DNA from: Anaerovoracaceae bacterium
GTDB lineage: Bacteria > Bacillota > Clostridia > Peptostreptococcales > Anaerovoracaceae
Direction: 5' to 3'
Assembly (NCBI GenBank): GCA_963678385.1
Contig: OY782829.1
Coordinates: 781,397-845,396, forward strand
DNA: 64,000 nucleotides
Shown here: in pieces, positions 14,909 through 35,052 of the stretch
How positions within the stretch are numbered: position 1 is the first letter of the stretch
How the letters are laid out: every line of letters starts with the position of its first letter
Program-made: the position numbers and the translations under genes
The notes under the pieces: model-generated
The model's database searches: none
What the model saw: only the letters and a program-made list of their open reading frames with translations
Told to the model about the DNA's origin: nothing

Positions 14909-16435
14909 TTAAATTCGTTTTGACATTTTCTTAAACACATCTTCCAGTGCAAAATAGCATTCGTCAAACAGCTCTTTTACCGGAGCGTATTTCTTTACTG
15001 CTTCCGGATCCGGTGTATGTACGGAATCAATGTTGATGAACTTGTCGATGGCAGTAAAGTCTTTAAATATCCCGGCGCCGACGCCGCCTGTTACCGCTGC
15101 GCCCATGGAGCCTGCTTCTTCCAGCAGGGATGGAACCGAGATCTTCGCGTTGTAGACGTCCGCCATGATCTGTCTCCAGACAGCGCCCTTTGCGCCTCCT
15201 CCGATAACGAGGATTTCCTCGATATCGACCTGTGTCCTGAGGACGTCCAGGCAGATGGACAGGTTCATCGTGACGCCTTCCAACACGCTTCTTAATAGAT
15301 CGCCGCGCGTATTTTCGGGTTTCATACCGATCCAGGCGCCCTTTGCGTCCGGATTCCAACGTGGCGCGCGCTCTCCGAGCAGATAGGGAAGAAAGATGAC
15401 GCCGTTTGACCCGATGGGGCTTTGGGCGATCTGCTCATTCATATAGGTATAGGGTGAAGTTCCGTTCAGCTTGGCGTCATAGCTCTCCATGGTGCATATC
15501 GTGTTTTTGAGCCAGTTGTAGGAGCCTCCGGCATACTGCATCGTGCCGTTCGGCGCGTATAAGCCGGGTACGATATGAGCCCAGGTCACGATCCTCATTT
15601 TCTCGTCAAAAATCGGCTTTTCCGTTGTGGTTGTGATCCACGCGGAAGTACCCATGCAATTGTATGTTTTTCCGGGAGCGATGGAACCGCAGCCGATATT
15701 GGCTGCAACACCGTCGCCTCCACCGAGAACGACGGGTGTGCCGACCGCAAGCCCAGTTGCTTTTGCTGCTGCTTCGGTGACGCCGCCTGCGACAAAGGTG
15801 GAAGGCTTTAATTCCGGAAGTTTATCGGGATCAATGCCTGCGTATTTTAAAATTTCTTCCGACCACTGCAATGTATTGAGGTCAAAACACCCATTGCTGT
15901 TGCCGTCGGAAGGCTCAGTGTAAAAGTTTCCCGTAAGCCGGAATACGATGAAATCTTTCGCGTTCAATGTTTTATATGTATTTTCGTAGATTTCCGGCTC
16001 GTTGTCCTTGACCCACATCAGCTTCTGGATACCATAGGAGGCGGTGTTCCGATGCCCTACGATATGATAAAAATCCCATTGACTGATATGTTCTTCGATT
16101 TGGGCCGCCTGTCTCTGGGCGCGCTGGTCAGCCCAGATCATGGATGGACGAAGGGGATTTCCCTGTTTGTCAACACACAGGCATCCCATCATTTGTCCGC
16201 TGAAGCTGATCGCCTTGATGTCTTTTGCGTCGATCCCGGTGGACTGGATCAGCTGTCTGCTGGTATGGCATACCGCATTCCACCAGTCTTCGGCATTCTG
16301 TTCCACCCAGGTATCATTGAAATAGTGGGCGTCATACGAATATACTTCGCTTCCTATAAGCTGACCTTCGGCGGAAAAAAGCGTTGCTTTATTGCCGGAG
16401 GTTCCCAGATCATGCGCTAATATATAGGTCGGCAT
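14909..16435 (-). CDS. FGGY-family carbohydrate kinase (xylulokinase-like)
   Basis: AHDLGTSGNKA, SFSGQMMG, GGGDG, FLPYLLGERAP, SVLEGV, GGGAK; start at ATG 16435 behind GGAGG. Confidence 0.9.
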   Translation of the reverse strand: MPTYILAHDLGTSGNKATLFSAEGQLIGSEVYSYDAHYFNDTWVEQNAEDWWNAVCHTSRQLIQSTGIDAKDIKAISFSGQMMGCLCVDKQGNPLRPSMIWADQRAQRQAAQIEEHISQWDFYHIVGHRNTASYGIQKLMWVKDNEPEIYENTYKTLNAKDFIVFRLTGNFYTEPSDGNSNGCFDLNTLQWSEEILKYAGIDPDKLPELKPSTFVAGGVTEAAAKATGLAVGTPVVLGGGDGVAANIGCGSIAPGKTYNCMGTSAWITTTTEKPIFDEKMRIVTWAHIVPGLYAPNGTMQYAGGSYNWLKNTICTMESYDAKLNGTSPYTYMNEQIAQSPIGSNGVIFLPYLLGERAPRWNPDAKGAWIGMKPENTRGDLLRSVLEGVTMNLSICLDVLRTQVDIEEILVIGGGAKGAVWRQIMADVYNAKISVPSLLEEAGSMGAAVTGGVGAGIFKDFTAIDKFINIDSVHTPDPEAVKKYAPVKELFDECYFALEDVFKKMSKRI

Positions 16436-16451
16436 GTTATTCCTCCAAATG

Positions 16452-17207
16452 TTATTTATTCTCGGGGAATACTGTGATTTCGAAACTGCTTCTGTCGCCA
16501 CGGTATCTGGCCAGAGAATACTCAATAGGTTTGCCGAAGGTGTTATACCCTATTGACGTGAAATGCTGAATTGGTTTCCCTTTTTTGATATCCAGCAGAT
16601 TTACGTCTTCCGCTTTCGCTTCCACCGCTTCTACGATACGCTCCACCCGAAAAACAGTCGTCGCGGGTGATTCGCCTAAGATCGCATACAAGCGTTCCTG
16701 CTCTAAATCATGATTCATGACAAATGCGCATACGTCATGCGGAAGATAGGTCTTGATCGTTACAATTGGTTCACCATCGGCCAGGCGTTTTCTATGCATG
16801 TAAATTACGGATTCATTTTCTTTGATTTCCAAATGCCTCGCGACAACATCGGATGCGGGCATAACTTTGAGTTCCAATACTTCCGTGCTCGGCTCCATTC
16901 CGGAGCGAATGATCTGGTCGTTAAAACTCTCCAGCTTTTTAATAAAATCCTGGTTTATTTTCGGCAGGGATACAAAGGTTCCCTTGCTTTTTACTCTGTA
17001 CAACCAGCCCTCCTGTACCAGCTCGGTAACAGCCTGGCGGACAGTGGTGCGGCTTATCTGAAAGGCGTCGCTGATTTCATTCTCAGTAGGGATGACGTCT
17101 CCGCTTTTATAATGCCCATTCTTTATTTCAGAAAGGATAAGCTGCTTTAGCTGAAAATACAAGGGGATCGGTACAGTTTTGTCTATCGATGTAAGCTTTG
17201 TAAGCAT
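16452..17207 (-). CDS. GntR-family (HutC/UTRA) regulator
   Basis: PLYFQLK, IPTENEI...FQISRTTVRQA, KGTFV, C-terminal UTRA YRGDR. Confidence 0.92.
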   Translation of the reverse strand: MLTKLTSIDKTVPIPLYFQLKQLILSEIKNGHYKSGDVIPTENEISDAFQISRTTVRQAVTELVQEGWLYRVKSKGTFVSLPKINQDFIKKLESFNDQIIRSGMEPSTEVLELKVMPASDVVARHLEIKENESVIYMHRKRLADGEPIVTIKTYLPHDVCAFVMNHDLEQERLYAILGESPATTVFRVERIVEAVEAKAEDVNLLDIKKGKPIQHFTSIGYNTFGKPIEYSLARYRGDRSSFEITVFPENK

Positions 17208-17371
17208 AAATATTCCTCCTAAATCTTTAAAAATTTATTTACGATATTGTAACATATCAGATTTATACTTACAATAATGTATTGTTAATAAGTATTATTA
17301 TAGGTACATAGCTAGTTATAGAAGAATACGACATAGTGCTCTATGCGTATTCTACTTAAGGTGTACTCTAC

Positions 17372-18403
17372 TTAAAAGGTGATGATCCCTTTTTTCAGTA
17401 CTTCGCGATTCAGCAGCTTTTCGTATGCCTTTACCGAGTCGTCAAACTTGAAATAATCGGAAATGAAATCCTTAATAACAAGTTTCCCGGAACGCACCCA
17501 ATCAAGCACCTGCGCATGGGCTGCGCCTTCTTCCTCTTTGCGGGGCATCTGCTGGTAAATCACTCTCCAGTTATAAGAAGCCTTGCTGAAATCAATGGTG
17601 ACTTCCTCTTTTTCCGGAACTCCGTAACAAAGTACGGTGCCTCTGTCTGCGATAAGACCCATAGCCTGGTTCACAACCAGGGGCAAGCCGACCGCGTCCA
17701 AAACGAAGTCAACGCCGTCGGGATACAGAGAACGTACTTCCTTTTCAAAGTCTTGCGTTTTACTGTTGATCGTTTTAGTTGCTCCGGATTCTTTGGCGAG
17801 CTTCAGTTTTTCATCGAAAATATCGATTGCAATGATGTCTTTCACGCCAAGCAAGCTTAAAAACTTGATGAAGGTGAGACCTACCGGTCCCGCGCCGAAT
17901 ACGACGATTGAATGCTCCGGCTTGATTCCGAAATAACGGATATTGCTCAACACTTCTCTAAAAGTTACAAACATGACCGCGTCGACCGGATCCAGGTCGT
18001 CTGATAGAACGGTCTGGGCAAAAGCGCAGGAAGGCGCTTCTCCTTCTGCATATGCAAGCGGGTCGTGTACAACGGCATATTCGCTCAATGCGCCCCAGCC
18101 GGAGCCAAGATCTCCGTATAATTCTTTATCAGGATCTACGAAAGGCAGCAATACTTTGTCGCCGATCTTCAAGCCCTTAACATCAGCGCCGACTTCAACT
18201 ACTTCGCCGACTCCCTCATGTCCGAGCATGATGGGATATACGGATTCCGGAATACCCTTGAAGGTTCTATGTATGAGCTTTACATCCGTTCCGCACATAC
18301 CGCAGGCGATGGTCTTTACAAGCGCTTGTTTTGCGTTGATCTTTGGAATGGCGATTTCTTTGATTTCCAGGCTGCCGTCTCGATTTACCGCTAATGTTCT
18401 CAT
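17372..18403 (-). CDS. Zn-dependent MDR dehydrogenase lacking the structural Zn loop
   Basis: CGMCGTD, GHEGVG, GAGPVG; no four-Cys cluster. Confidence 0.85.
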   Translation of the reverse strand: MRTLAVNRDGSLEIKEIAIPKINAKQALVKTIACGMCGTDVKLIHRTFKGIPESVYPIMLGHEGVGEVVEVGADVKGLKIGDKVLLPFVDPDKELYGDLGSGWGALSEYAVVHDPLAYAEGEAPSCAFAQTVLSDDLDPVDAVMFVTFREVLSNIRYFGIKPEHSIVVFGAGPVGLTFIKFLSLLGVKDIIAIDIFDEKLKLAKESGATKTINSKTQDFEKEVRSLYPDGVDFVLDAVGLPLVVNQAMGLIADRGTVLCYGVPEKEEVTIDFSKASYNWRVIYQQMPRKEEEGAAHAQVLDWVRSGKLVIKDFISDYFKFDDSVKAYEKLLNREVLKKGIITF

Positions 18404-18459
18404 TTCCTAATTCCTCCCTAAATAAATGTATTTTTTATAATCATTCGATGTCGATATGA

Positions 18460-18479
18460 TGTTATGTAGTGACATAACA
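18460..18479. promoter_or_regulatory. Palindromic operator candidate between divergent genes
   Basis: tgttatgt-agtg-acataaca perfect 8-bp inverted repeat. Confidence 0.6.
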
Positions 18480-18553
18480 AATTATAACAGAACAAAGTTG
18501 AAATTACCAGCGAATTTTTTGATTCTTTGCTTATTTAAAAGGGGCAAGGAATC

Positions 18554-18582
18554 TTGACAGGGGGGAATAGGGAATGTATAAT
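18554..18582 (+). promoter_or_regulatory. Consensus sigma-A promoter of the glycerol dehydrogenase gene
   Basis: TTGACA-17 bp-TATAAT. Confidence 0.8.
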
Positions 18583-18643
18583 GTAGTAACAAAGTAACGA
18601 TACGAACAAAGAAGTTAATTATATATGTAAGGAGGCATATTTT

Positions 18644-19774
18644 ATGGCAAATAATTTAAAGAGTACGACAATGGCATGGGGTTCTCCGGGACGGTACATT
18701 CAGGGACCGGGAGAGCTTATGAATCTTCCCAAGTATACTTCCAAATACGGTGAAAACGTGTTTGTGGTCATTGACCAGTTCTTTTTTAAAGATCTCACTG
18801 AAAAATTATCGAAATTATATGGAGAACGTTCCGGCAAATTCCTGACTGCCATTTTTGATACAGAAGTATCTGAGGAACAGATCGCGGCGAAAACAGCGGT
18901 GGCAAGTAAAATCTCGCCGAATGTCATCGTCGGGATCGGCGGCGGAAAAACCCTGGACACGGCAAAAGCAGTAGCCGATGACTTGAAGGTCCCTGTTATC
19001 ATTATTCCGACGTCGGCTTCCACCGACGCGCCAACCAGCGCGTTGTCGGTCATTTATAAACCGAATGGGGAACACTCTCATGCACGTCATTATATCAAGA
19101 GCCCTGACATCGTACTGATCGACAGCAAAATCATAGCGGACGCTCCCGTCAGATTCCTCGTCTCCGGTATGGGAGACGCATTGGCGACGGTGTTTGAAGC
19201 AAAAGCAAACGCGGCGTCGGACAGCGCGAATTACATAGCGGGCGAATCCGGAGAATTCAGAAGAACAAAAACCGCAATGGTCATTGCTCAGGCCTGCTAT
19301 GATAACCTCATCGCAAACGGTCTGAAGGCTAAGCTTGCGGCGGAAAATCACTGCGTAACTGAAGCCTTGGAAACCATAATCGAAGTGAATACGCTTATGA
19401 GCGGATTGGGATTTGAAAATACCGGCTGCGCGGCTGCACACTCGGTCTGCGAAGGCATTACCGCCGTACCGGATGCAGGTAAAATGCAGCACGGCGAGCA
19501 GGTTGCCTTTGGTACTGTCTGTCAGCTGGTTGCGGAAAATGCGCCGAAGGAAGTTATTGACGAAGTGGTCGGCTTCTGCATGAGCGTTGGACTTCCCATT
19601 ACGCTGGAAGATGTAAAGGTCAATCCTACGAAAGAAAATGTAAGAATTATCGCGGAATCTTCCGTAAAGAATTCCTACTGGGCGGCACAGCCGGCTCCTG
19701 TCACGGTTGAATCCGTGATGGACATCATATTTACCGCAAATGCGCTGGGCCATTACTATTACAAGCAAGGTTAA
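18644..19774 (+). CDS. gldA: Glycerol dehydrogenase family (metal-dependent polyol dehydrogenase)
   Basis: SPGRYIQG, GIGGGKTLDTAK, PTSASTDAP, GMGDALAT, LMSGLGFEN, HGEQVAFG. Confidence 0.85.
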   Translation: MANNLKSTTMAWGSPGRYIQGPGELMNLPKYTSKYGENVFVVIDQFFFKDLTEKLSKLYGERSGKFLTAIFDTEVSEEQIAAKTAVASKISPNVIVGIGGGKTLDTAKAVADDLKVPVIIIPTSASTDAPTSALSVIYKPNGEHSHARHYIKSPDIVLIDSKIIADAPVRFLVSGMGDALATVFEAKANAASDSANYIAGESGEFRRTKTAMVIAQACYDNLIANGLKAKLAAENHCVTEALETIIEVNTLMSGLGFENTGCAAAHSVCEGITAVPDAGKMQHGEQVAFGTVCQLVAENAPKEVIDEVVGFCMSVGLPITLEDVKVNPTKENVRIIAESSVKNSYWAAQPAPVTVESVMDIIFTANALGHYYYKQG

Positions 19775-19812
19775 ATCAGCTTTTTCATTTTTCTCACTCC
19801 ATTAAATGTTTT

Positions 19813-19859
19813 AAAAAAGAACTGCCATATTTCAATCATGAATATGGCAGTTCTTTTTT
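19813..19859. terminator. Bidirectional terminator
   Basis: aaaaaagaactgccatatt...aatatggcagttctttttt. Confidence 0.85.
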
Positions 19860-19882
19860 ATCCTAAACTATTTGTGGAGGAG

Positions 19883-20836
19883 CTATTTGTTGACAACAAA
19901 CGGACAATCTTTTCCGGATAACACGTCGATTAAATTTTTAACGGACAGATCGGCCATATTTTCCACCGCTTCCCCGGTATGGGCTCCGGTATGCGGGGTA
20001 GCCACTACGTTATTCAAAGTGAATAGCGGGGAATCCGTTGGAGGCTCGATTTCAAAGGCGTCCAGCGCCAGGCCGCCGAGCCTGCCGTTTTTTAACGCGT
20101 CATATGCGGCGTCTTCGTCAATAATGCCGCCTCTTGATGTATTTACAAGGAGTGCTGAGGGTTTCATCTTTGCGAGTGCGGAGGCGCCGATCAAGTGTTG
20201 TGTGGATTCTATGAGCGGGAGGTGTAGGCTTATCACGTCTGCCTGCTCCAATACTTCGTCGAAAGTGCTTGCCTTTATCGCGTTGTTCCTGCAATACTCT
20301 TCATTAATATAGGGATCGTAGGCCATAACGGTCATATCAAATCCCTTGGCGCAGCGGGCGACGACCTTGCCGATGGCGCCGAGACCCATGATGCCGATGG
20401 TCTTTCCCTTTAATTCCATGCCGGTGGAGCGGATCCATCCGCCTTTGCAGACACTGGCATGAAGATAAGGTATCCTTCTCGCCAACGACAGGATAAGCCC
20501 GAATGCCAGCTCGCCTACGGCTTCCGCGTTTACCCCCGGCGTATTGGTGACCGGAATGGATAATGCACTGGCAGCGGCGACGTCTACGCGGTCGTAGCCG
20601 GCGCCGTAGCGGGAGATCACCTTTAAATGCTCGCAGGACCTGAGGACTTTTTCGGTTACAAAGTCCAGGCCGGCGATATAGCCGTCGCAGTCCTTCAGCA
20701 GAGGAAGCAATTCCTCCTCGGTCAGCGGTTTTCCCGTCGTATTGAATACTAAATCATTTGAAAAAGCCTTTAATTCCTCCAGAGCCCTTGAGCTTTTTCC
20801 GGGCTGCATGGAAGTGGGCGTCACCAGTATCTTCAT
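19883..20836 (-). CDS. D-isomer-specific 2-hydroxyacid dehydrogenase (PGDH-like, no ACT domain)
   Basis: ISRYGAGYD, NTPGVNA, GLGAIG, LVNTSRGG, ALDAFEIEP, TPHTGA. Confidence 0.9.
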   Translation of the reverse strand: MKILVTPTSMQPGKSSRALEELKAFSNDLVFNTTGKPLTEEELLPLLKDCDGYIAGLDFVTEKVLRSCEHLKVISRYGAGYDRVDVAAASALSIPVTNTPGVNAEAVGELAFGLILSLARRIPYLHASVCKGGWIRSTGMELKGKTIGIMGLGAIGKVVARCAKGFDMTVMAYDPYINEEYCRNNAIKASTFDEVLEQADVISLHLPLIESTQHLIGASALAKMKPSALLVNTSRGGIIDEDAAYDALKNGRLGGLALDAFEIEPPTDSPLFTLNNVVATPHTGAHTGEAVENMADLSVKNLIDVLSGKDCPFVVNK

Positions 20837-20872
20837 ATATGTATGCTCCTTTTTAACATTCTATCCGGCGCT

Positions 20873-21502
20873 TTAGCGTACCAATTCAACAGCCTCGGCT
20901 GTCAAGCGTGCGATTTCCTTGAAATCGCCGGAGTTGATGAGCTTGTCTGAAGCCATCCAGCTGCCGCCGCAGGCAATGATTTTTTTGGAAGCGAGAAAAT
21001 CTAAAATATTGGATTGATTGATTCCACCTGTGGGCATAAACCGGACGGAGGGGAACGGCGCGGCCAGGGCGTTGATCGTGTCCAGGCCCCCGTATTGCTT
21101 CGCCGGGAAAAATTTCATGACAGGCAGATCATACTCAAGCGCCATCATAAGCTCCGTGGGCGTACAGATCCCCGGAAAAATCATCAGCTTATTTTTTAAA
21201 GCGTACTCGGTAACTTTACTGCTGAAACCGGGAGATACGATAAATTTGGCGCCTGCATCAACTGCTCTCTTTGCCTGCTCTTCATTTACTACAGTACCGG
21301 CGCCCACCAGCATATCGGGAAATTCCTTCGCTATGATGCGGATGGATTCCTCGGCAGCCTCGGTCCGAAACGTTATTTCCGCCACGGGCAGGCCGCCTGT
21401 GCAGAGCGCTTCGGCCAGCGGTTTGGCGTCTGCAGCTTTATCCAGTTTTACTACCGGTACGATTTTTTTTAATTCAACCTCTTTTAAAATATCATCAAAC
21501 AT
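20873..21502 (-). CDS. eda: KDPG/KHG aldolase
   Basis: EITFRT, GAGTV, FIVSPG, KFFPA Schiff-base Lys, FMPTGGI. Confidence 0.92.
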   Translation of the reverse strand: MFDDILKEVELKKIVPVVKLDKAADAKPLAEALCTGGLPVAEITFRTEAAEESIRIIAKEFPDMLVGAGTVVNEEQAKRAVDAGAKFIVSPGFSSKVTEYALKNKLMIFPGICTPTELMMALEYDLPVMKFFPAKQYGGLDTINALAAPFPSVRFMPTGGINQSNILDFLASKKIIACGGSWMASDKLINSGDFKEIARLTAEAVELVR

Positions 21503-21541
21503 AAATTAACCTCCTATCGGATCCGTGCGTTCAACTTCGTA

Positions 21542-22495
21542 TTAAAACGCTAAAGCGCGGACACAGTTTTCATAAAAGAAATTATGGATCTGTTCTCCCT
21601 CAATGCCGGAATTTCGCATCAGCGGAATAAACGTTTTTAATATATAGTCCAGACCGACGGCGTGGTTGGTATAAGCACGAAGACGTTCCCTGGTCGTGTC
21701 GAGGGAGCATAGGATCTGGCCCCCGTATCCAACCGCCAGCAGTTCTTTTATGATCTCAATTTCGCGTTCGTCGGTGTGATACTTGAAGCGTCCGATGGTA
21801 TCCAGTTCCGCAAACACGCCTTTGTCGACGATTCTTTTTATCGTGTCGACGTCGTCGCAGGCTCTGTCCAGATGGCAAAAGATCAATTTGCCCGCGGGGA
21901 CTCCTCTTAAAGTGAGAAATTTAAGCAGCGCCAACGGATCGCTGCCCTGTTCGATATGAACCATCATGGGAGCGCCGGTGCTGATCGCCGCATCGATCGC
22001 TGCAAGAAATAAACGCTGATACCGGTCGGTCAGACCCTCTTTATCAAGGGCGGTCTTTATGATACCGGCTTTCAAAGAACAAAACGCGTGGGGCTCGGAT
22101 GTATCGCTGCCGACAAATATTCCCTTTGTGATCTCGTGGATATAAATCTCAGCAAGTCTATTTTTGGAATAAGTATGTATCCAATGTTGCTCCGGATAAA
22201 AGTACAGCTTATGGAAGCCGGTGGAGCAGATAATGTTGACGCCGGTTTCTTCCGACAGCACCCCCAGAGCGGATTCCATGCGGTTGCAGCCCACAGGCTG
22301 AGCGTCGATCACCGACTGGCCGCCTGCGGCCCGGTAATGGAGCAGCTCCACTTTGCTTTTCGAAATGTCGTCAATACAAAGCGCCGGATTGACGTCATAA
22401 GAGACTCCCTTGCTGATCATCAAATGTTCGTGACATTGACAGAAGCCCAGCTTTTGGGAAGGGATAACTCCGGATATTGTCTTGATATTGGACAT
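21542..22495 (-). CDS. Phosphotriesterase-related amidohydrolase (lactonase-like)
   Basis: CHEHL metal motif, AGIIK, VHIE, FCHLDR, SLD; start at ATG 22495. Confidence 0.85.
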   Translation of the reverse strand: MSNIKTISGVIPSQKLGFCQCHEHLMISKGVSYDVNPALCIDDISKSKVELLHYRAAGGQSVIDAQPVGCNRMESALGVLSEETGVNIICSTGFHKLYFYPEQHWIHTYSKNRLAEIYIHEITKGIFVGSDTSEPHAFCSLKAGIIKTALDKEGLTDRYQRLFLAAIDAAISTGAPMMVHIEQGSDPLALLKFLTLRGVPAGKLIFCHLDRACDDVDTIKRIVDKGVFAELDTIGRFKYHTDEREIEIIKELLAVGYGGQILCSLDTTRERLRAYTNHAVGLDYILKTFIPLMRNSGIEGEQIHNFFYENCVRALAF

Positions 22496-22505
22496 GATCG
22501 CCTCC

Positions 22506-23087
22506 TTACCAGTTCGGGTTATCGGTAATGATCGGCTTCCCATCCTTTTCTAAAACAATTTTATGGAAACCCTTCAACTCGATGGTGCCGTAATCATGGC
22601 CGGCATCGGCAGCAAAGGTGAAAAACAGAACAAGGGGTTCGGTTCCTGTGTTGACGGTCCTGTGGGCATAGCGCCTTGGAACATATAATGCGGCACCCTT
22701 AGATAATGGCTCCACAAGCGATTCGCCTTCCGGGTTTTCCATAACCATATATCCTTCGCCGGAGAGGGTATAATACACCTCGGCGGTTTCTAAAACGGTA
22801 TGGAAATGGCCCTTTGTCATATAGTACTCGGATCCGACCTTCCCGGGATATATAATGGTGGTGCCGAATAAAAGGTCTCCGGCTCTTTCCGGACAGCCCA
22901 ACTCGTGAAATTCATATATGACAGGATCTTTGTCGACTAATATTCTCTTGGCTTCCGACCGATCCGCAAATACGTTTTTCATATTCGATAAATACCGCTT
23001 TGTCGTGACGGCAGCTTTCGATAATCCGTTTTCGAGGTCAAAATCCACAAGAAAGCTTTTATCCCAATTAAAGTTATTCATAATCAT
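22506..23087 (-). CDS. Cupin-type glucose-6-phosphate isomerase family protein
   Basis: GTTIIYPGKVG.EYYMTKGHFH, AEVY..LSGEG, YVP...AHRTVNTG. Confidence 0.88.
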   Translation of the reverse strand: MIMNNFNWDKSFLVDFDLENGLSKAAVTTKRYLSNMKNVFADRSEAKRILVDKDPVIYEFHELGCPERAGDLLFGTTIIYPGKVGSEYYMTKGHFHTVLETAEVYYTLSGEGYMVMENPEGESLVEPLSKGAALYVPRRYAHRTVNTGTEPLVLFFTFAADAGHDYGTIELKGFHKIVLEKDGKPIITDNPNW

Positions 23088-23097
23088 CCCTCTTTCC

Positions 23098-24033
23098 TTA
23101 TAATTTGGCGATCCGGCTCAAATTCTCCAATCGGTCACCTTTGATTTCAATATGGAATACTTCTGCGATAACCTGTGTCCAGCCATGGATGAAGTAGATC
23201 CATCCGTCTTCCACATGGAGGTTTTTCGCTGCAGCCTGTGATTCGGCCTGCCGCTTGAACAATAAGTCGCCGCGGTAATTGATCTCCCAAACCAGACTTT
23301 CCCGCGGAAATTCGCAGCCGTCGGTAAGAGGGGAACCCGGGGCGTCTTTGCCGAGGCCCGTAGCATTGACGATCAGAGAGTGAGGCTTTAATGACGCCAG
23401 CGTCCGGTCATTATCTTCAGGAGTTGGATTATGTACAAATTCAAATTTTATCTGAGGATGGATCCCGTCCAGGATCGCTTTTGCAGATTCCAGGCGGGGC
23501 AGGCTCCGATTGGCGATGATAATGCGTTTCGGAACGTTTGCACCGATCTTTTCCTGCGCGAAGTAAACCGACATCGCAAGAGTGCTTCCGCCGGCGCCCA
23601 GCAGCAGAACGTCGCCGCCGTGATCCTTCCAGTAATTTGCCGGCACAAAATTCGCCAGGGCTAAGCCGCTGGAGATGGGGTCCTTCGCATGCGCGCACAA
23701 TTTTCCGTCTTCTTTGGAGATGGAAGAAACTTCTCCCAGTCTTTCGGCATATGGATCAACGTAATCAAAGAGATCACGGCAGGTTTGAAATAAATCGATT
23801 TTATGTGTGGTGACAAGTGCTCCCAAAGAAAGGGGATCGTTTTTTATAAATTCCACAGCTTCACGGTATTCTTCGGCCGGGGAATGGGGCTTAAAATCGA
23901 TCCCTTTTATCACGGAATCTTTCAGCCCAAGAAAATCAGCCCATTTCGGGAAGACTTTCATAATGGAAGACTGGTCCGTTGTAACCCCAATGAAATAAAT
24001 TGTTGGAGCAGTTGCTTTTTCATAGTTGGCCAT
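23098..24033 (-). CDS. Shikimate dehydrogenase-like oxidoreductase of unknown substrate
   Basis: ALVTTHK, LLGAGG, IANRS, VNATGLG; divergent N-terminus FIGVTTDQSSIMKVFP. Confidence 0.72.
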   Translation of the reverse strand: MANYEKATAPTIYFIGVTTDQSSIMKVFPKWADFLGLKDSVIKGIDFKPHSPAEEYREAVEFIKNDPLSLGALVTTHKIDLFQTCRDLFDYVDPYAERLGEVSSISKEDGKLCAHAKDPISSGLALANFVPANYWKDHGGDVLLLGAGGSTLAMSVYFAQEKIGANVPKRIIIANRSLPRLESAKAILDGIHPQIKFEFVHNPTPEDNDRTLASLKPHSLIVNATGLGKDAPGSPLTDGCEFPRESLVWEINYRGDLLFKRQAESQAAAKNLHVEDGWIYFIHGWTQVIAEVFHIEIKGDRLENLSRIAKL

Positions 24034-24133
24034 TGTTGATTTCCTTTCTTAAGTTATTGTTAACAATGCTAGGTTGTAATGTTACAACGTATATAATGAA
24101 TAATTACTGCTCCTTGGAAGGGAGCAGTAAAAA

Positions 24134-25135
24134 CTATGCTTCGATATTCAGCAGGCTCATGGTAGCCGGAAGCTCATGGGCAGTGTTGACCTTATCGCTG
24201 CCGACTACACAGTCAAAACACGAAACCGCGATTTTGCCGTTCCAGACGCACGGCTCGCCGGGCTGATCCAATTCTCCGTTAAAACCGTCGGTATCGGGGC
24301 TTTGCGCAATACGTTTCACATGCCCGTCCCGGTCTACTCTGGCAACTGCGTTTACTACAAAATCAGCCACATAGATGTTACCGAATTCGTCGATGGTCAT
24401 GCCGTCCGTAGAACGCAAGTTTTGAGGATCCCTTGCAAATGACTTATTCTCCCTGATGCTGCCGTCTTCGTTGAAGGTGATCTTAAAGATCTCGCCGTCG
24501 CCGAAGTTTCCGACATACAGATTTCCCTCGTGGTCAAATACGATGCCGTCCATTCCGTATTGGTCATCCGGATTGTGGGTGAGCCATGTTTCAAATATGT
24601 TCTTATCGTCCAGTGTGTTCGTGATATGTATGTTTTCGTCGTCCAGATGAAAACGGTAGACACAGCTGAGTAATTTGCCGGATTCTGTTTTCACTTTCTC
24701 CATCGTGCTTTGTGTGACGTATATGTAGTCGCCTTTTATGCGGATGCCGTTGGGATGCTCCATTCCTTCGGCGATAACGGTAACCTTTTCGATCGTGTCC
24801 CCGTTCATTCTGACACGGAGGATACGGCCCTGGAACTTAAGACGTTCGTCTCCGGACCAGCCTTGATTATCGACTATGTAAAGATCCCAGTCAGGGCCGA
24901 AGGCAAGGCCCATGGCTCTGGCTTCCTTTGTTTTCTCATGTAATGGTACATCGAACCATTTTCTGACGTTGCCGTTGGTATCGATTTTGGCGATGCAGCT
25001 TGGCATGGACATATCTGCAAAGTTAGGACATGCAAGTATTAAATTTCCTTCCCGGTCGACTTCCATCCCATCCGGGGTGCAAATGAATTCCTTGGGCAGC
25101 AGTGCCAATAGTTTTGGTGTTTGCATACGAACCAT
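24134..25135 (-). CDS. SMP-30/gluconolactonase family beta-propeller
   Basis: TPDGM, PNGI, MDGIVFD..GNLYV, DGMTIDEFGNIYVA repeats. Confidence 0.85.
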   Translation of the reverse strand: MVRMQTPKLLALLPKEFICTPDGMEVDREGNLILACPNFADMSMPSCIAKIDTNGNVRKWFDVPLHEKTKEARAMGLAFGPDWDLYIVDNQGWSGDERLKFQGRILRVRMNGDTIEKVTVIAEGMEHPNGIRIKGDYIYVTQSTMEKVKTESGKLLSCVYRFHLDDENIHITNTLDDKNIFETWLTHNPDDQYGMDGIVFDHEGNLYVGNFGDGEIFKITFNEDGSIRENKSFARDPQNLRSTDGMTIDEFGNIYVADFVVNAVARVDRDGHVKRIAQSPDTDGFNGELDQPGEPCVWNGKIAVSCFDCVVGSDKVNTAHELPATMSLLNIEA

Positions 25136-25293
25136 CCTTTTTATTATGTTATGACATTACTATATTACAATACTACGATAAAAAGAATAACATATTATTT
25201 TATACTTGAAAAGCATAAATTTTAAAAAATTATTTACTTTTAAAATAAAACAGGGTTATCATGTAGGAAATATGTAGTATTTTGGAGGGGTAT

Positions 25294-26415
25294 ATGAACG
25301 CAGGCAGCAATAATATGGAGGTCAGGAAGGCCAATAAGAACAGGGCATTTCGTTACATCTGCCAGAAAGAAAGAGTATCGAAGCCTGAAATCGCAGCGGC
25401 GCTTGGCATTAGTGTACCCACCGTACTTCAGCTGGTAAACAAGCTGGAGGAGGACAATCTTGTATTTGAAGTGGGAGAGTGCGATTCAAAGGGCGGAAGA
25501 AAGGCGAAAGCAGTCGGACCAAACTGGGATGCCGCTTACGCCATCGGACTGGATATCACCAAAAACCATATCAGTCTGATCTATACCGACTTATCAAAGC
25601 AGGCGCTGGAGCACGTTCGAATCAACAAAGCCTTTGAAGACACGGAGGATTATTATAAAGAGGTCACCGATACTCTGAAAGACTTTATCCGGGATTATCA
25701 TATTCCGGAAGATAAAATAGTGGGCGTAGGGATATCGATACCGGGAATCGTCGACGGCGCCAACAATCGCATTGAGAGATCCCACGTCTTAAATCTATAC
25801 GACGTTCCCTGCGAACGGTTTGGAAAATATCTTCCTTATCCGACCATTCTGATCAACGACGCAAATGCCGCGGGAAGGACAGAAATAGACAGCGAAAGAA
25901 TCAAAAATAATATTGTCTATCTGTCGCTGAGCAATAGTGTTGGCGGCACCGTGATCATGGGGGATATATTCAGCGGAAACAACTGGCGGTCCGGCGAATT
26001 TGGACATATGGTCGTAGCCGGAGCCGAAGGGACCTGCTACTGCGGGAAAAAGGGGTGCTTTGACGTATGCTGTTCCGCGCTTCGCCTAGCCGACCTGGCT
26101 GACGGAAAGCTTGAAACATTTTTTGAGGGCCTGGAACAGCAGAACCCGGAATACAAGAAAGCATGGGACAAATATTTGTCATATCTTGCGACCATGGTGG
26201 AAAACCTCCACATGGCATTCGACTGCGATATCATTTTAGGGGGTTATGTCGGGAGCTTTATGGGACCATACATAAGGGAATTCCAGGCCAGGATCGCCAA
26301 AGACAATATCTTTGGAAACACAGGAACGTATGTAAAGTCGTGCAGATACCAATTTGAGGCGGCAGCATTGGGAGCCGCGCTTTTCTTTATTGAGAAATTC
26401 ATGAAGGAAATTTAG
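25294..26415 (+). CDS. ROK-family transcriptional repressor
   Basis: N-terminal HTH, GGRKA, IGLDI, INDANA, SGEFGHM, CYCGKKGC. Confidence 0.92.
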   Translation: MNAGSNNMEVRKANKNRAFRYICQKERVSKPEIAAALGISVPTVLQLVNKLEEDNLVFEVGECDSKGGRKAKAVGPNWDAAYAIGLDITKNHISLIYTDLSKQALEHVRINKAFEDTEDYYKEVTDTLKDFIRDYHIPEDKIVGVGISIPGIVDGANNRIERSHVLNLYDVPCERFGKYLPYPTILINDANAAGRTEIDSERIKNNIVYLSLSNSVGGTVIMGDIFSGNNWRSGEFGHMVVAGAEGTCYCGKKGCFDVCCSALRLADLADGKLETFFEGLEQQNPEYKKAWDKYLSYLATMVENLHMAFDCDIILGGYVGSFMGPYIREFQARIAKDNIFGNTGTYVKSCRYQFEAAALGAALFFIEKFMKEI

Positions 26416-26560
26416 TACAGCTGCCATTATCAAAAAACTGAAAATCGCTTTTTTGCCTCCTGCCGGGAATCGGCGGGAGGCTTCTCTTTTTTCGATCCAG
26501 TTCTGACAAATTTTACAATTAAAAAGTATTGACAAACAGAAAAAGAAGGATTAGCATAAT

Positions 26561-26593
26561 AATGACTTTGTTAAAGATATTAATAAAGTCATT
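26561..26593. promoter_or_regulatory. 33-bp palindromic operator candidate (ROK type)
   Basis: aatgactttgttaa-agata-ttaataaagtcatt just downstream of a TTGACA at 26529. Confidence 0.7.
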
Positions 26594-26619
26594 AACGAAG
26601 AAAGGAGGAAATGCGAATC

Positions 26620-27657
26620 ATGAAAGTAGCTGTTATGACTGGAATAGGGAAAATTGACTATATTGAAGCACCAATACCGGTCCCCAAGGATGATGAAGTT
26701 CTTGTCAAGCTGGAGTATGTGGGGATATGCGGCAGCGATCTGCATTATTATGAAAACGGCCGGATCGGCGATTACATAGTAGAACCGCCTTTTGTCCTGG
26801 GACATGAGCCGGGAGGAATCGTTACGGAAGTCGGCAAAAATGTTACCCATTTAAAGGTCGGGGATAAAGTTGCCCTGGAACCGGGAAAGACCTGCGGAAA
26901 GTGCCGCTTTTGCAGAGAAGGAAAGTATAATTTATGCCCGGACGTCATATTCTTTGCGACGCCGCCCGTAGACGGAGTTTTTCAGGAATATGTGGCCCAT
27001 GAAGCGGCTTTGTGCTTTAAACTGCCGGACAACGTGAGTACGCTGGAAGGCGCGCTGATCGAACCTTTGGCGGTAGGCTTTCACGCTGCAGGCCAGGGGG
27101 ATGCCCATGCCGGGCAGAAAGCGGTCGTATTCGGAGCCGGATGCATCGGACTAGTGACAATGATGGCGCTCAAAGCCAGAGGAGTTACAAATGTAGTCGT
27201 TGTAGATATCATGCAGAAGAGACTGGATAAAGCGCTGGAACTGGGCGCCACAGCGGTGATCAACTCAGCGGAGGAAGACGTGCTTGCGCGTTCAAAGGAA
27301 TTGACGGCGGGTGAAGGCTTCGATCTGGCAATTGAAACGGCAGGAACTGAAATAACGGCGGCTCAATGTATCCAGGTGGTGAGAAAGGGCTCCACGATCG
27401 TATTGGTAGGCTATGGAAAATCGGGAATGATGAATTTGCCTATGAGCCTGGCACTTGACAAAGAAGTAACGTTCAAGACCGTGTTCCGGTATCGTCATAT
27501 TTATCCGATGGCGATTGAAGCAGTCGCTTCGGGAAAGGTAAATTTGAAGGGGATCGTGACCCACCAGTTTGATTTTGAGCATGTTCAGGAAGCCATGGAT
27601 AACTGTGTCAAAGATAAATCGAATATCGTAAAAGCCGTAATCAAGTTCACAAAATGA
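26620..27657 (+). CDS. Sorbitol/xylitol-type polyol dehydrogenase (MDR)
   Basis: GICGSDLHYY, GHEPGG, CGKCRFC...YNLC, GALIEPLAVG, VFRY. Confidence 0.88.
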   Translation: MKVAVMTGIGKIDYIEAPIPVPKDDEVLVKLEYVGICGSDLHYYENGRIGDYIVEPPFVLGHEPGGIVTEVGKNVTHLKVGDKVALEPGKTCGKCRFCREGKYNLCPDVIFFATPPVDGVFQEYVAHEAALCFKLPDNVSTLEGALIEPLAVGFHAAGQGDAHAGQKAVVFGAGCIGLVTMMALKARGVTNVVVVDIMQKRLDKALELGATAVINSAEEDVLARSKELTAGEGFDLAIETAGTEITAAQCIQVVRKGSTIVLVGYGKSGMMNLPMSLALDKEVTFKTVFRYRHIYPMAIEAVASGKVNLKGIVTHQFDFEHVQEAMDNCVKDKSNIVKAVIKFTK

Positions 27658-27675
27658 AAGGGGAGACCATAAATC

Positions 27676-28698
27676 ATGAAAGCGATTGTTTACAATGCGC
27701 CAAGAGACTATGAATTAAAAGACATTCCAAAACCAGCGATCGCACCAAATCAGGTGCTGATCAAGGTCGCGGCCTGCGGAGTGTGCAGGACAGATATGCA
27801 CATCCACGAGGGCGACTTTATCTCTGAATTTCCGTTGACGCCGGGACATGAATTTACAGGCGAAATCGTCGAAATCGGTTCGGAGGTATATGGGTTTTCA
27901 CTGGGAGACCGCGTAGTTGGCGACAATACGGTTCTTTGTGGTGAATGCTACTTTTGCAGAAGAAATCAACCGTTATTTTGTGAAAACTTTTATTCTTTGG
28001 GATGCAACGGGCCTGGAGGATTTGCGGAATATGTAAAGGTAAACTTCGATAAAGTCTTTCATATCAGCGACAACTTATCCTATGATCAGGCGATCTTCGC
28101 AGAACCATTAGCGTGCGCGATCCATGGTATGGACGTGATCGCACCGAAATGCGGCGATGATGTACTGATTTTCGGAGCGGGGCCGACGGGCATTTTGCTG
28201 ACTCAGCTGTTAAAGCACGGCGGAGCGGCGAATGTTGTAGTCTGTGCGTCCTCCCAGGAGAAATTGGATCTGATCCAGAAAAACGGATACGCGGAAACCG
28301 TGTTGATGGACCGCAACGATTATTCGAAACATGCTAAAACATTAAAAGAAAAATATCCTCACGGCTTTGATATCGTGATCGATGCCACAGGAGCACCGAA
28401 GGTATTGGAACAATGCTTCGATTTTCCTAAGAAAACCGGAAAGATCATTATCTACGGCGTATGTGCCAGTGACGCGAAGATTTCCGTTAATCCGTATCAA
28501 ATTTTCAGCAATGAATTAAAGGTACTGGGATCCTTCGCACAGACTCATTGTTTTGACCGAGCTGTGAAATACCTCGAAAACGGAGTCATAAAAGTTGACG
28601 ATCTGGTAGCAAAGCATTTTACTTTGGAGGAATTCGGAGAAGCCATGGATACCATGGTGAACGGCAAGGGCCTTTTAAAGCTGATCGTTACTCCGTAA
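27676..28698 (+). CDS. Zn-dependent polyol/alcohol dehydrogenase (arabitol/mannitol-DH-like)
   Basis: CGVCRTD, GHEFTG, CGECYFC...PLFC, GAGPTG, GSFAQ. Confidence 0.85.
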   Translation: MKAIVYNAPRDYELKDIPKPAIAPNQVLIKVAACGVCRTDMHIHEGDFISEFPLTPGHEFTGEIVEIGSEVYGFSLGDRVVGDNTVLCGECYFCRRNQPLFCENFYSLGCNGPGGFAEYVKVNFDKVFHISDNLSYDQAIFAEPLACAIHGMDVIAPKCGDDVLIFGAGPTGILLTQLLKHGGAANVVVCASSQEKLDLIQKNGYAETVLMDRNDYSKHAKTLKEKYPHGFDIVIDATGAPKVLEQCFDFPKKTGKIIIYGVCASDAKISVNPYQIFSNELKVLGSFAQTHCFDRAVKYLENGVIKVDDLVAKHFTLEEFGEAMDTMVNGKGLLKLIVTP

Positions 28699-28797
28699 CT
28701 CTGAGCATTGTCCGACACGGTTCAACACACCAGAGCAGCGTCTAAATTGGCTGTTATACGTATTGTCACCTTAGCGTAAAAAAAATAGAATTTATTA

Positions 28798-28826
28798 TTG
28801 ACATGGGATAGGGCACGCATTATAAT
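28798..28826 (+). promoter_or_regulatory. Consensus sigma-A promoter of the ABC operon
   Basis: TTGACA-17 bp-TATAAT. Confidence 0.8.
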
Positions 28827-28935
28827 ATGACACATGCAAGATAATAATCTCGTAATGTAGGTACATAAGGACCAAGCGGATCGGCAAAGCATATTACGGA
28901 TTATAAATCGGCCCATCAAAAAAGGAGGAATTTTT

Positions 28936-30087
28936 ATGAAATTGAGGAGACTTACATCATTATTGCTCGCGGGAATGTTAGTAATCAGCACTTTGACTGC
29001 TTGCGGCTCGCAGCAAACGGAATCAACCGATACCGGTTCCGACACAGCTGTTGCATCAAATATTGATTACGCGAACTTCGTAATCGATCCAAGTAAGATT
29101 CCACAGGAAAAGCTCGACACAACTTTATACGTAGCTACATCAGTTCGTGGGCTTGAAAATCCTTACATAGTAACAATTACAGAAGGAATGGATGAATTCT
29201 GTAAGTATTTGGACAGCATTGGGCAGAAATATGAAAAGCAAGTATTGGATTCCGGCGGATCCAATGACGTCGAAATCGACAACATGAAACAGTTCGCCGC
29301 AAAAGCAAACGGTAATGCGATCGCTTACGCTGACCCGAATGAAGCGGCAATCGCTCCTTCCCTTGCTGAAGCAATGGCATCCTCGGGCGGATATATCGGA
29401 ACTGCCTGGAACAAGCCAGACGACGCTATGCCGCAGGACTATAATCCAAACTGGGTTATCCACACTTCGGCTGACAACGTAACAAACGGCAAAGCTACCG
29501 CAAAAGCGCTTTTCGATAAGATGGGCGGAAAAGGCAAGATATTTGTTATTGAAGGTATGCTCGGAAATACAGCTTCCATCGATAGAGTAAAAGGCTTAGA
29601 ACAGGCTTTAAAAGAATATCCGGATATCGTAGTAGCACATCAGGATACAGGCAACTGGGCTACGGATCAGGCGCTTACTTTAGTTGAAACTTGGCTGAAT
29701 GATACTCCTGACGTTGGCGGTATCTGGTGTGCAAACGACAATATGGCAACCGGCGCACTTCAGGCTCTTGATAAACAGGGACTGAAAGGTAAAGTCGGCG
29801 TAACCGGCATTGACGCGAACACCGACATCGTTCAGGAAGTCAAAGCTGGCAACGTAGTTGCAACGGTTTCTTCAAACGGTTACTTACAGTCAGGATATAC
29901 ATTGGCGATCTGCTATGCAGCATGGGCCGGATTGATCGATCCAGAACAGCTGCCGGATGATTACAGAGTGTTCTTAACACCTGCTGTAATGGTTACATCT
30001 GATAATGTTGATGATTATATCGCAAAATATGTTGACGCAACTCCGGAAATGGATTTCTCAAAGATTTTTGACTGCAAAATAAAGTAA
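28936..30087 (+). CDS. Sugar ABC transporter substrate-binding lipoprotein (RbsB-like fold)
   Basis: Lipobox LTAC, ENPY, RVKG, CANDNMATGA, VTGID. Confidence 0.9.
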   Translation: MKLRRLTSLLLAGMLVISTLTACGSQQTESTDTGSDTAVASNIDYANFVIDPSKIPQEKLDTTLYVATSVRGLENPYIVTITEGMDEFCKYLDSIGQKYEKQVLDSGGSNDVEIDNMKQFAAKANGNAIAYADPNEAAIAPSLAEAMASSGGYIGTAWNKPDDAMPQDYNPNWVIHTSADNVTNGKATAKALFDKMGGKGKIFVIEGMLGNTASIDRVKGLEQALKEYPDIVVAHQDTGNWATDQALTLVETWLNDTPDVGGIWCANDNMATGALQALDKQGLKGKVGVTGIDANTDIVQEVKAGNVVATVSSNGYLQSGYTLAICYAAWAGLIDPEQLPDDYRVFLTPAVMVTSDNVDDYIAKYVDATPEMDFSKIFDCKIK

Positions 30088-30108
30088 GATTAATAATCTG
30101 ATGATTCA

Positions 30109-30141
30109 AAGGAGGAGATTGACAAAGTCAGTCTCCTCCTT
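30109..30141 (+). terminator. Stem-loop after the SBP gene (attenuator or mRNA stabiliser)
   Basis: aaggaggagattgac-aaa-gtcagtctcctcctt. Confidence 0.6.
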
Positions 30142-30201
30142 ACATCGAAAACATGTTAAAATAGCAGGAAACGGACTTATTAATTGATTGGAGAAGATAG
30201 A

Positions 30202-31221: not shown

Positions 31222-31237
31222 TGCCGGAGGGATAGAA

Positions 31238-32773: not shown

Positions 32774-32785
32774 GCGGGTGAAAAA

Positions 32786-33763: not shown

Positions 33764-33774
33764 AGGAGAAAACC

Positions 33775-34164: not shown

Positions 34165-34218
34165 ATGAGTTGCATACGGGGGAATAATCCCCCGTATCAT
34201 ATTATGGGAGGAGAGAAT

Positions 34219-35037: not shown

Positions 35038-35052
35038 AGGCTGGGGTCGGAT

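Follow-up and report, generated by a model that had tools for sequence, protein, structure and literature searches.

We analysed a 64-kb window (64,000 nucleotides of the single 3.70-Mb contig OY782829.1 from an Anaerovoracaceae bacterium) around a cluster of genes for the catabolism of a sugar or sugar-like compound. Genes were called from an open reading frame (ORF) listing and from hidden Markov model (HMM) scans with Pfam and NCBIfam, and these agreed that the ten genes which an earlier, sequence-only reading had placed at 14909-25135 are present. Five core genes are closely packed in one operon on the reverse strand. In the order of transcription, they encode a protein with a divergent AroE/shikimate-dehydrogenase fold (AroE-like, 23098-24033), a homologue of the cupin phosphoglucose isomerases (cPGI, 22506-23087), an amidohydrolase of the phosphotriesterase (PTE) family (21542-22495, with its ATG at 22495), Eda, the aldolase for 2-keto-3-deoxy-6-phosphogluconate (KDPG) and 2-keto-4-hydroxyglutarate (KHG) (20873-21502), and a D-2-hydroxyacid dehydrogenase (2-HADH) resembling phosphoglycerate dehydrogenase (PGDH) (19883-20836). 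The first gene of the operon is an accessory one; it encodes a beta-propeller of the SGL/SMP-30 type (24134-25135; PF08450, 64.6 bits against a cut-off of 26.3), a possible lactonase whose PDB matches were to NHL-type propellers only. A hairpin with a 10-bp stem (24104-24130, reverse strand) between the beta-propeller and AroE-like genes may serve as a partial terminator or processing site within the operon. Farther along the same strand, a gene for a GntR/HutC regulator (16452-17207; winged helix-turn-helix PF00392 with a C-terminal UTRA domain, PF07702) is co-transcribed with the gene for an FGGY sugar kinase of 508 amino acids (aa) (14909-16435; Pfam FGGY_N and FGGY_C). The kinase had previously been read as an FGGY protein, which stands; its 538-aa ORF was over-extended, however, and the gene starts with the ATG at 16435, after a GGAGGA site.

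The AroE-like protein had no Pfam match, and its best NCBIfam aroE score was 44 bits against a cut-off of 413. When an AlphaFold2 model (predicted local distance difference test, pLDDT, 89.4) was compared with known structures by Foldseek, nearly all of the top 50 matches belonged to the shikimate dehydrogenase (SDH) family, with template-modelling (TM) scores of 0.6-0.72; at the top stood shikimate/quinate dehydrogenases and the 5-ketofructose reductase of Gluconobacter (TM ∼0.7, 15-22% identity). The catalytic Lys/Asp pair (K78 and D118), an NRS motif and several extra basic residues are invariant among 45 sequences; in AroE, the NRS motif is of the NADP type. We also assembled 82 related loci, seeded by the AroE-like gene and with gene families defined by de novo ORF clustering, and found the gene next to sugar-catabolic rather than shikimate-pathway genes in all 82. 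We propose the protein as a candidate NADP-dependent sugar-phosphate 1-dehydrogenase.

The cupin had previously been taken for a generic isomerase. It is indeed an isomerase homologue, but of the archaeal cPGI type (PF06560, 101.9 bits against a cut-off of 20.7; E = 4.5e-57 to the Thermococcus litoralis enzyme, 1j3p), and it retains the motifs TKGHFH, E, YAHRTVN and ADAGHDYG, all of which agree residue for residue with 1j3p and 4lta. Its identity to the cupin PGIs of Thermococcales is 50-55%, with identical metal-binding and substrate motifs. The bacterial cPGIs linked to the AroE-like gene make up a clade of their own and are encoded in a catabolic operon instead of serving central glycolysis; their carriers usually possess ordinary sugar metabolism as well. 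In a cPGI tree, Thermococcales are sister to all AroE-like-linked bacterial cPGIs (support 98/88); the deepest bacterial branch is that of Atribacterota, and the Treponema sequences fall within Bacillota. The idea that the archaeal cPGIs descended from this pathway was dropped: the tree places them as sister and not nested, and the long outgroup branches allow no direction.

The closest structures to the PTE-family protein (PF02126, 161 bits) were the Lmo2620-type 3pnz, E. coli PHP and Mycoplasma 3msr. Its best relatives are the phospho-sugar lactonases of the PTE family Lmo2620/Bh0225 (3pnz) and Mycoplasma MS53_0025 (3msr), at E ∼1e-29 to 1e-30, and like them it is encoded in a kinase-containing sugar cluster; it remained below the equivalog level of the NCBIfam phospho-furanose lactonase NF045706 (131.6 bits against a cut-off of 630). 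Characterized lactonases of this family act on pentono-1,4-lactone-5-phosphates, and to our knowledge the pathway around them has never been defined. On the basis of these similarities, we propose the window protein as a candidate phospho-sugar lactonase. Eda is a standard member of its family, with 234 bits on PF01081, 261 bits on PRK05718 (cut-off 241) and 250.8 bits on TIGR01182 (cut-off 156), and a whole-genome search found the operon's copy to be the only one in the source genome. The 2-HADH (Pfam 2-Hacid_dh and 2-Hacid_dh_C) best matched the short PGDH 1wwk (1.4e-62), followed by glyoxylate reductases; in the alignment with PGDH, the catalytic Arg/Glu/His positions match and the phosphate-binding Arg-Ser motif is replaced. 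The kinase scored 393.9 bits on NCBIfam XylB (cut-off 380) and 316.8 bits on gntK_FGGY, and its nearest solved structures were XylB (2itm, 3.5e-64) and LsrK (3e-58).

The core genes, together with those for the FGGY kinase and the GntR regulator, are syntenic in the 82 loci, which represent three phyla (Bacillota, Atribacterota and Spirochaetota). When species-representative genomes were scanned with the AroE-like protein, > 549 loci were obtained, the best 80 of which encode relatives that are 60-87% identical across phyla, and marker genes were found in > 596 metagenome stretches. Carriers include Lachnospiraceae (Clostridium scindens, Blautia and Dorea, which are common in the human gut, and also Faecalicatena and Muricomes), Oscillospiraceae, Christensenellaceae, Paenibacillus, Peribacillus, Sporosarcina, termite-gut Treponema and subsurface Atribacterota. 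By ORF clustering, the AroE-like gene was present in 79 of the 82 loci, cPGI in 68, 2-HADH in 65 and PTE in 59, followed by Eda, the FGGY kinase and a medium-chain dehydrogenase/reductase (MDR; 49 each), a permease of an ATP-binding cassette (ABC) transporter (36), GntR (35), and the beta-propeller, a short-chain dehydrogenase/reductase (SDR) and a Gfo/Idh/MocA-type oxidoreductase (17 each); GldA was found in seven. The GntR-linked, co-conserved catabolic cluster of the sequence-only reading is thus borne out by synteny and by the conserved operator described below. What it had drawn as a single ten-gene cluster, however, resolves into a conserved core operon and accessory oxidoreductases that vary by lineage, as the propeller (17/82) and GldA (7/82) illustrate.

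The core gene order is the same in C. scindens and Anoxybacterium hadale. Among 399 Clostridia genomes drawn evenly over the class, 12, each of a different genus, carried the AroE-like gene, and all 12 had a strong cPGI match, mostly adjacent to it and fused with it once (an AroE-like/cPGI fusion, P0117, is also present in the protein collection). By comparison, the 387 genomes without the AroE-like gene gave two weak cPGI matches. Such a grouping greatly exceeds what chance would produce. Its scattered occurrence and high sequence identity, together with a gene tree that does not follow taxonomy, suggest that the genes have been passed on horizontally as a catabolic island.

To the set of genes under common control we assign more than the core operon. 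In the window, a zinc-type MDR (17372-18403, reverse strand; Pfam ADH_N and ADH_zinc_N; no NCBIfam equivalog was reached) and an iron-dependent alcohol dehydrogenase of the GldA subfamily (glycerol dehydrogenase type; 18644-19774, forward strand; PRK09423, 421.5 bits against a cut-off of 336) are divergently transcribed accessory genes. On the other side, the core operon faces a divergent block that spans 25282-35916 on the forward strand. This block consists of a ROK-family regulator with two MDRs of the polyol type (25282-28698; Pfam ROK, HTH, ADH_N and ADH_zinc_N), followed by an ABC operon (28936-35916; Pfam assignments) for a CUT2 importer (substrate-binding protein, SBP, then permease, ATPase and permease), a VOC protein (33775-34164), an aldo-keto reductase (AKR) and a TIM barrel of the xylose-isomerase type (35053-35916). 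The last protein is an equivalog of D-psicose 3-epimerase (NF051856, 434.1 bits against a cut-off of 300). The AKR is DkgA-like (NCBIfam DkgA, 282 bits, under the cut-off), and the best NCBIfam matches of the two MDRs (L-idonate 5-dehydrogenase, IolM and Tdh) were all under cut-off. The ROK/MDR block is syntenic with the core in four related loci (L012, L013, L016 and L039).

A 16-bp palindrome, T[TA]ATGT-N4-ACAT[TA]A, links these units. It occurs at three sites in the window, against 0.49 expected, and all three lie in promoter regions; as the first two sites served to define the pattern, the third is its sole independent match. TTATGTAGTGACATAA (18462-18477) stands between the divergent MDR and GldA promoters and is the core of the window's only perfect 20-bp TGTTAT...ATAACA palindrome. 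TTATGTTATGACATTA (25144-25159) overlaps the -10/spacer region of the promoter from which the core operon is transcribed, divergently from the ROK gene, and TTATGTACCTACATTA (28853-28868) follows the -10 hexamer of the ABC-operon promoter at a distance of 27 nt. Perfect sigma-70 consensus promoters (TTGACA-17-TATAAT) lie near operator copies before gldA (18554-18582) and before the ABC operon (28798-28826). In the sequence of the related loci (1.43 Mb), the pattern was found 33 times, nearly always in intergenic positions, as compared with 0.6 times in block shuffles; an earlier search for half-sites of this operator had not reached significance. Sites directly preceded the AroE-like gene in 10 other loci (20-50 bp upstream), GntR in eight, MDR in six, the SBP gene in four (L012, L013, L016 and L025), GldA and 2-HADH in three each, and a GH105-like gene in one (L027). 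The operator was present in 18 of 35 loci with GntR versus six of 47 without, three of these six being short contigs.

These positions suggest that the palindrome is the operator of the GntR/HutC regulator, which probably represses the regulon. Read in this way, it unites the core operon, the accessory dehydrogenases and the transporter in one regulon; the block for the ABC importer and the epimerase would belong to it because an operator stands at the start of that operon, and GldA because of the shared site at 18462-18477 and the operators before GldA in three related loci. The absence of a transporter that had been noted for the cluster is therefore an artefact of where its border was set: a CUT2 importer lies in the divergent neighbour with the same operator. 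The suggestion that GldA disposes of a C3 product found no support, since Eda, if it gives pyruvate and glyceraldehyde-3-phosphate, leaves no free C3 product; GldA more likely acts upstream, on the unphosphorylated substrate. Operator and regulator together offer a direct handle on finding the inducer.

The most conspicuous gap in the gene set is that of a dehydratase. As the sequence-only reading had stated, the window cluster contains none, and no dehydratase family recurs in the 82 related loci. A dehydratase encoded elsewhere in the source genome was considered and rejected. Edd (TIGR01196) was not found there: the two IlvD-family genes reached 270-291 bits against a cut-off of 708, whereas on TIGR00110 they obtained 794 and 666 bits, by which they count as IlvD. 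Searches of the same genome for Zwf (PF02781), Gnd, UxuA and UxaA-type genes were likewise negative. In five other carrier genomes (B. producta, P. senegalensis, a Christensenella, Muricomes and F. contorta), no true Edd exceeded the cut-off. Because true Edd is lacking in the source genome and in these five carriers, 6-phosphogluconate plus Edd cannot be the route to Eda. Nor does the operon make up for the lack of an oxidative pentose-phosphate branch, since four of the five carriers have Zwf and keep cPGI and the AroE-like gene nonetheless. We therefore discarded, as a general explanation, the notion that the AroE-like and PTE proteins are mere substitutes for Zwf and Pgl, all the more as the source genome has neither Gnd nor Edd for 6-phosphogluconate. 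The second IlvD-family gene of the source genome (L094:4394-8186, at ∼3.679-3.683 Mb) lies beside genes for a UlaG-like hydrolase (ascorbate-6-phosphate-lactonase type) and a 3-hydroxyacyl-CoA-dehydrogenase-like protein, with xanthine-dehydrogenase-type genes adjoining; these genes may constitute a separate sugar-acid route.

How, then, could the encoded enzymes supply Eda with a substrate? We infer an order of steps, with phosphorylated intermediates and NADP use, as follows. The ABC system would import a neutral sugar-like compound, which variable NAD(P) oxidoreductases would trim to a ketose (here MDR, AKR, GldA and the epimerase-like TIM barrel; in relatives Gfo or SDR enzymes). The FGGY kinase would then phosphorylate the terminal hydroxyl of the ketose, and cPGI would convert the ketose-6-phosphate to the aldose-6-phosphate. 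C1 oxidation of the latter by the AroE-like enzyme with NADP+ would give a phospho-lactone, to be opened by the PTE-type lactonase to the 6-phospho-aldonate. Finally, C2 oxidation by the PGDH-like 2-HADH would yield a 2-keto acid, which Eda would cleave to pyruvate and glyceraldehyde-3-phosphate. C2 oxidation of related phospho-acids is the reaction of PdxB, SerA and KguD. The intermediates are probably phosphorylated because cPGI, PTE, 2-HADH and Eda are closest to phospho-sugar enzymes and because a kinase is encoded in most loci. In this respect the scheme departs from the oxidative lactone-aldonate route with isomerization and aldol cleavage that had been proposed from the sequence alone, the dehydratase-free logic of which it keeps.

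Since this sequence of steps makes KDPG from 3-deoxy-hexulose-6-phosphate and not from an ordinary hexose, a substrate already deoxygenated at C3 is favoured. That the operon encodes such a dehydratase-free route, from kinase and isomerase via C1 oxidation, lactone hydrolysis and C2 oxidation to KDPG and Eda, is in our judgement quite possible, though somewhat short of an even chance. As to the compound itself, 3-deoxy-hexuloses and hexosuloses (3-deoxyfructose, 3-deoxyglucosone) or another pre-deoxygenated sugar are speculative candidates. 3-Deoxyglucosone and 3-deoxyfructose are the chief dicarbonyl products of sugar heating, ageing and Maillard chemistry, and DkgA-like AKR, VOC and GldA families handle 2-oxoaldehydes in E. 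coli. The two compounds are attractive, if speculatively so, because the AKR, VOC and GldA proteins of the regulon belong to these families. The more specific proposal that the regulon is dedicated to the salvage of sugars without a C3 hydroxyl, mainly 3-deoxyglucosone and 3-deoxyfructose, by way of 3-deoxy-hexose-6-phosphate, 3-deoxy-6-phosphogluconate and KDPG, is a tentative one that we regard as doubtful.

Several variant loci bear on the chemistry of these steps. In a metagenome locus (L131), the position upstream of cPGI-FGGY-GntR is taken by a tungsten-type aldehyde:ferredoxin oxidoreductase (AOR); the locus also encodes Eda and a 2-HADH (62% identical), while the AroE-like gene and PTE are lacking. 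A second locus of an Atribacterota genome, in the related cluster L100, comprises GntR, a small cupin, FGGY, an aldehyde dehydrogenase (ALDH) and a TIM barrel; Eda and 2-HADH are encoded nearby. These replacements by AOR or ALDH argue that the AroE-like enzyme and the lactonase together carry out the oxidation of an aldehyde to an acid at C1. PTE was not found in five Atribacterota and Treponema genomes that keep the AroE-like and cPGI genes, four of which have Eda; PTE is thus dispensable. Other loci encode Pgl/NagB-type proteins or propellers, and some relatives encode PfkB kinases. In Atribacterota, 2-HADH lies near Eda at a locus separate from that of AroE-like and cPGI. The Eda proteins of the loci fall into two subtypes that are ∼30% identical to each other, and the fact that both serve, in different loci, fits the ordinary substrate of KDPG-type aldolases.

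Several points speak against a substrate lacking the C3 hydroxyl. There is no direct sequence pointer to a 3-deoxy sugar in the material analysed; cPGI, with its full set of PGI motifs and 50-55% identity to true glucose-6-phosphate isomerases, would fit ordinary hexose phosphates equally; the psicose-3-epimerase equivalog of the regulon has no role on a sugar without a C3 hydroxyl; and 3-deoxyglucosone is not an obviously plausible food of hot-spring or termite-gut bacteria. Glycyl-radical enzymes are encoded inside four related loci (L034, L047, L048 and L140) and could be hidden, radical dehydratases. Also on this side of the balance, a GH105/GH88-like gene is located in the operon of six loci, directly before the AroE-like and cPGI genes and together with CUT1 ABC importers, which, in those lineages, points to unsaturated uronates instead of neutral deoxy sugars. 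This last variant, and the operator that precedes its GH105-like gene in L027, would suit a third, non-orthologous counterpart of the KduI/KduD (or DhuI/DhuD) routes for lyase-derived unsaturated uronates. Here a polysaccharide lyase would have created the deoxy carbon, which accounts for the missing dehydratase, the AroE-like enzyme would reduce the diketone to 2-keto-3-deoxygluconate (KDG), and a kinase would form KDPG for Eda. The PfkB kinases of some relatives agree with this; moreover, carboxylates are the usual substrates of the AroE family, and KduI is a cupin too. We nevertheless consider such a uronate route improbable, as the replacement of the AroE-like enzyme by AOR (L131) or ALDH (L100) fits an oxidation and not a keto-reduction, and PTE and 2-HADH, nearly as conserved as cPGI, would be left without a role. 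In addition, four of the five genomes that bear the GH105-like variant have a gene of the KduI/IolB family (PF04962), most loci encode CUT2 monosaccharide importers and polyol dehydrogenases, and no GH105-like gene is present in the window's cluster.

If the C3 hydroxyl is instead retained, an ordinary or epimeric hexose-6-phosphate could be oxidized to a 2-keto-6-phospho-aldonate that Eda cleaves to hydroxypyruvate and glyceraldehyde-3-phosphate, with 2-HADH reducing hydroxypyruvate to glycerate. No dehydratase is needed in this case either, and the scheme would explain why 2-HADH and Eda are closely paired even at a locus apart from AroE-like and cPGI, why 2-HADH resembles both PGDH and glyoxylate reductases, and why cPGI has PGI-like motifs; the psicose epimerase, with its rare-ketose context, would also be accommodated. 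It is, however, unlikely in view of the aldolase: the window Eda is a standard one and the two divergent subtypes are interchangeable, which would not be expected of a specialized new specificity, and we know of no KDPG aldolase that uses hydroxypyruvate as donor. Glycerate kinase is also missing from the clusters. An Entner-Doudoroff pathway that starts from fructose-6-phosphate and dispenses with Edd would require a hidden dehydration, either by the cupin (1,2-enediolate to 3-deoxyglucosone-6-phosphate) or at the metal centre of PTE (phospho-lactone to KDPG). The source genome, with Eda in the operon and without Edd, Zwf and Gnd, invites this explanation; the AOR and ALDH variants would suit a free 2-oxoaldehyde, and the MurQ etherase is a precedent for C3 elimination from sugar-6-phosphates by isomerase-type enzymes. 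Yet cPGI retains all catalytic motifs of true isomerases, and some genomes in which the other genes are kept have no PTE at all. Dehydration of a lactone cannot be general, because the AOR/ALDH variants do not form one. Since the widely kept 2-HADH would, furthermore, have no role, and four of the five carrier genomes have Zwf, we give a hidden dehydration only a slim chance. Much the same slight probability attaches to a mosaic, in which enzymes for the interconversion of rare sugars and polyols (of the Izumoring type) and an unrelated Eda stand under one regulator and act on separate substrates. The accessory genes do vary from locus to locus (MDR, Gfo, SDR, AKR, GldA, TIM barrels, glycyl-radical and GH105-like enzymes), the psicose epimerase occurs in 42 of the 399 Clostridia genomes as compared with 12 for the core, and in human-gut contigs cPGI also occurs with only a DeoC-like aldolase beside it. 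Against this stand the adjacency and order that the five core genes keep across phyla, the perfect co-occurrence of AroE-like and cPGI, sometimes as a fusion, and the common operator that links the units. Sulfoquinovose, the sulfonate analogue, was put aside as a substrate too, in view of the conserved kinases and because this route would not do without a dehydratase either.

The dehydratase-free route to KDPG is best seen against the classical Entner-Doudoroff pathway (Pgi, Zwf, Pgl, Edd and Eda). Both follow the same order of chemistry, from an isomerase via an NADP-type C1 dehydrogenase and a phospho-lactonase to a standard Eda, but with different folds: a cupin PGI for Pgi, the AroE-like protein for Zwf, and a PTE-type amidohydrolase for Pgl. 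Where the classical pathway has Edd, the operon has the PGDH-like 2-HADH; a dehydratase defines every Entner-Doudoroff variant that we know of. The KduI/KduD and DhuI/DhuD routes (with KdgK and KdgA/Eda) resemble the operon in combining an isomerase, a reductase, a kinase and Eda without a dehydratase, but the window cluster holds no homologue of these isomerases and reductases (its cupin is PF06560 and not PF04962, and there is no SDR). Accessory families are shared with the ketogluconate and idonate routes (DkgA, 2-ketoaldonate reductase/KguD, IdnD and gluconokinase) and with the Thermotoga inositol route (IolG, IolM, IolN and IolO), namely a DkgA-like AKR, 2-HADH, IdnD/IolM-like MDRs, an IolO-like TIM barrel, an FGGY kinase and a CUT2 importer. 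However, no window protein reached the equivalog cut-offs of these routes, which lead to 6-phosphogluconate or KDG and from there depend on Edd, UxaA or Gnd, all absent from the source genome. As the sequence-only reading had suspected, no characterized pathway matches: a full-text literature search found no published description of this gene set. A paper on L-threonate 3-dehydrogenase (PMC12994016), considered as a possible match, proved unrelated.

The operon appears to be among the more widespread sugar-catabolic operons lacking an assigned substrate. Solving it would reveal a new branch of central carbohydrate metabolism and the reason why bacteria keep archaeal-type cupin PGIs, and might show what gut bacteria do with dietary or damaged sugars. 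Should the salvage of 3-deoxy sugars prove true, it would be the first catabolic route for 3-deoxyglucosone and 3-deoxyfructose, the AroE-like sugar-phosphate 1-dehydrogenases would constitute a new family, and the 'D-psicose 3-epimerases' would gain a physiological setting; the literature searched treats these epimerases solely as biocatalysts.

The epimerase itself was detected in six of the 12 Clostridia genomes with the AroE-like gene, as compared with 36 of the 387 without, in counts where kin are not independent; in P. senegalensis, its homologue lies ∼3 kb past the cluster. Since the epimerase is much more widespread than the core and in many cases lies away from it, we regard it as an optional feeder and not a core member. 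In two related loci (L058:4918-6192 and L060:4909-6213), a single 424-aa protein combines a xylose-isomerase-like TIM barrel with a VOC/glyoxalase domain. The VOC protein and the epimerase-like TIM barrel, which are separate products of one operon in the window, probably cooperate, given this fusion.

Two further elements delimit transcription units in the window. A bidirectional terminator (19813-19859), whose 12-bp stem is flanked by an A-run and, at its opposite end, by a T-run, separates the convergent gldA gene and core operon. Directly downstream of the MDR gene, an imperfect long inverted repeat, GAATACGACATAG...CTATGCGTATTC (17310-17345), is probably the MDR terminator and would divide this gene from the gntR-kinase unit.

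Among the related loci, one of those with a glycyl-radical enzyme (L140:7126-18545) has GntR, 2-HADH, cPGI and Eda facing an N-acylglucosamine-2-epimerase-family protein, two MDRs, an FGGY kinase and the glycyl-radical enzyme itself, which is 780 aa long and encoded together with its activase; it contains no AroE-like gene and no PTE. A variant frequent in human-gut metagenomes (L113-L129; e.g. L129:7387-9582) is limited to GntR and, facing it, a two-gene unit for a cPGI (65% identical) and an aldolase of the DeoC/LacD family; the AroE-like gene, PTE, 2-HADH and Eda are all missing. Five loci that carry the AroE-like gene contain DeoC-like genes as well.

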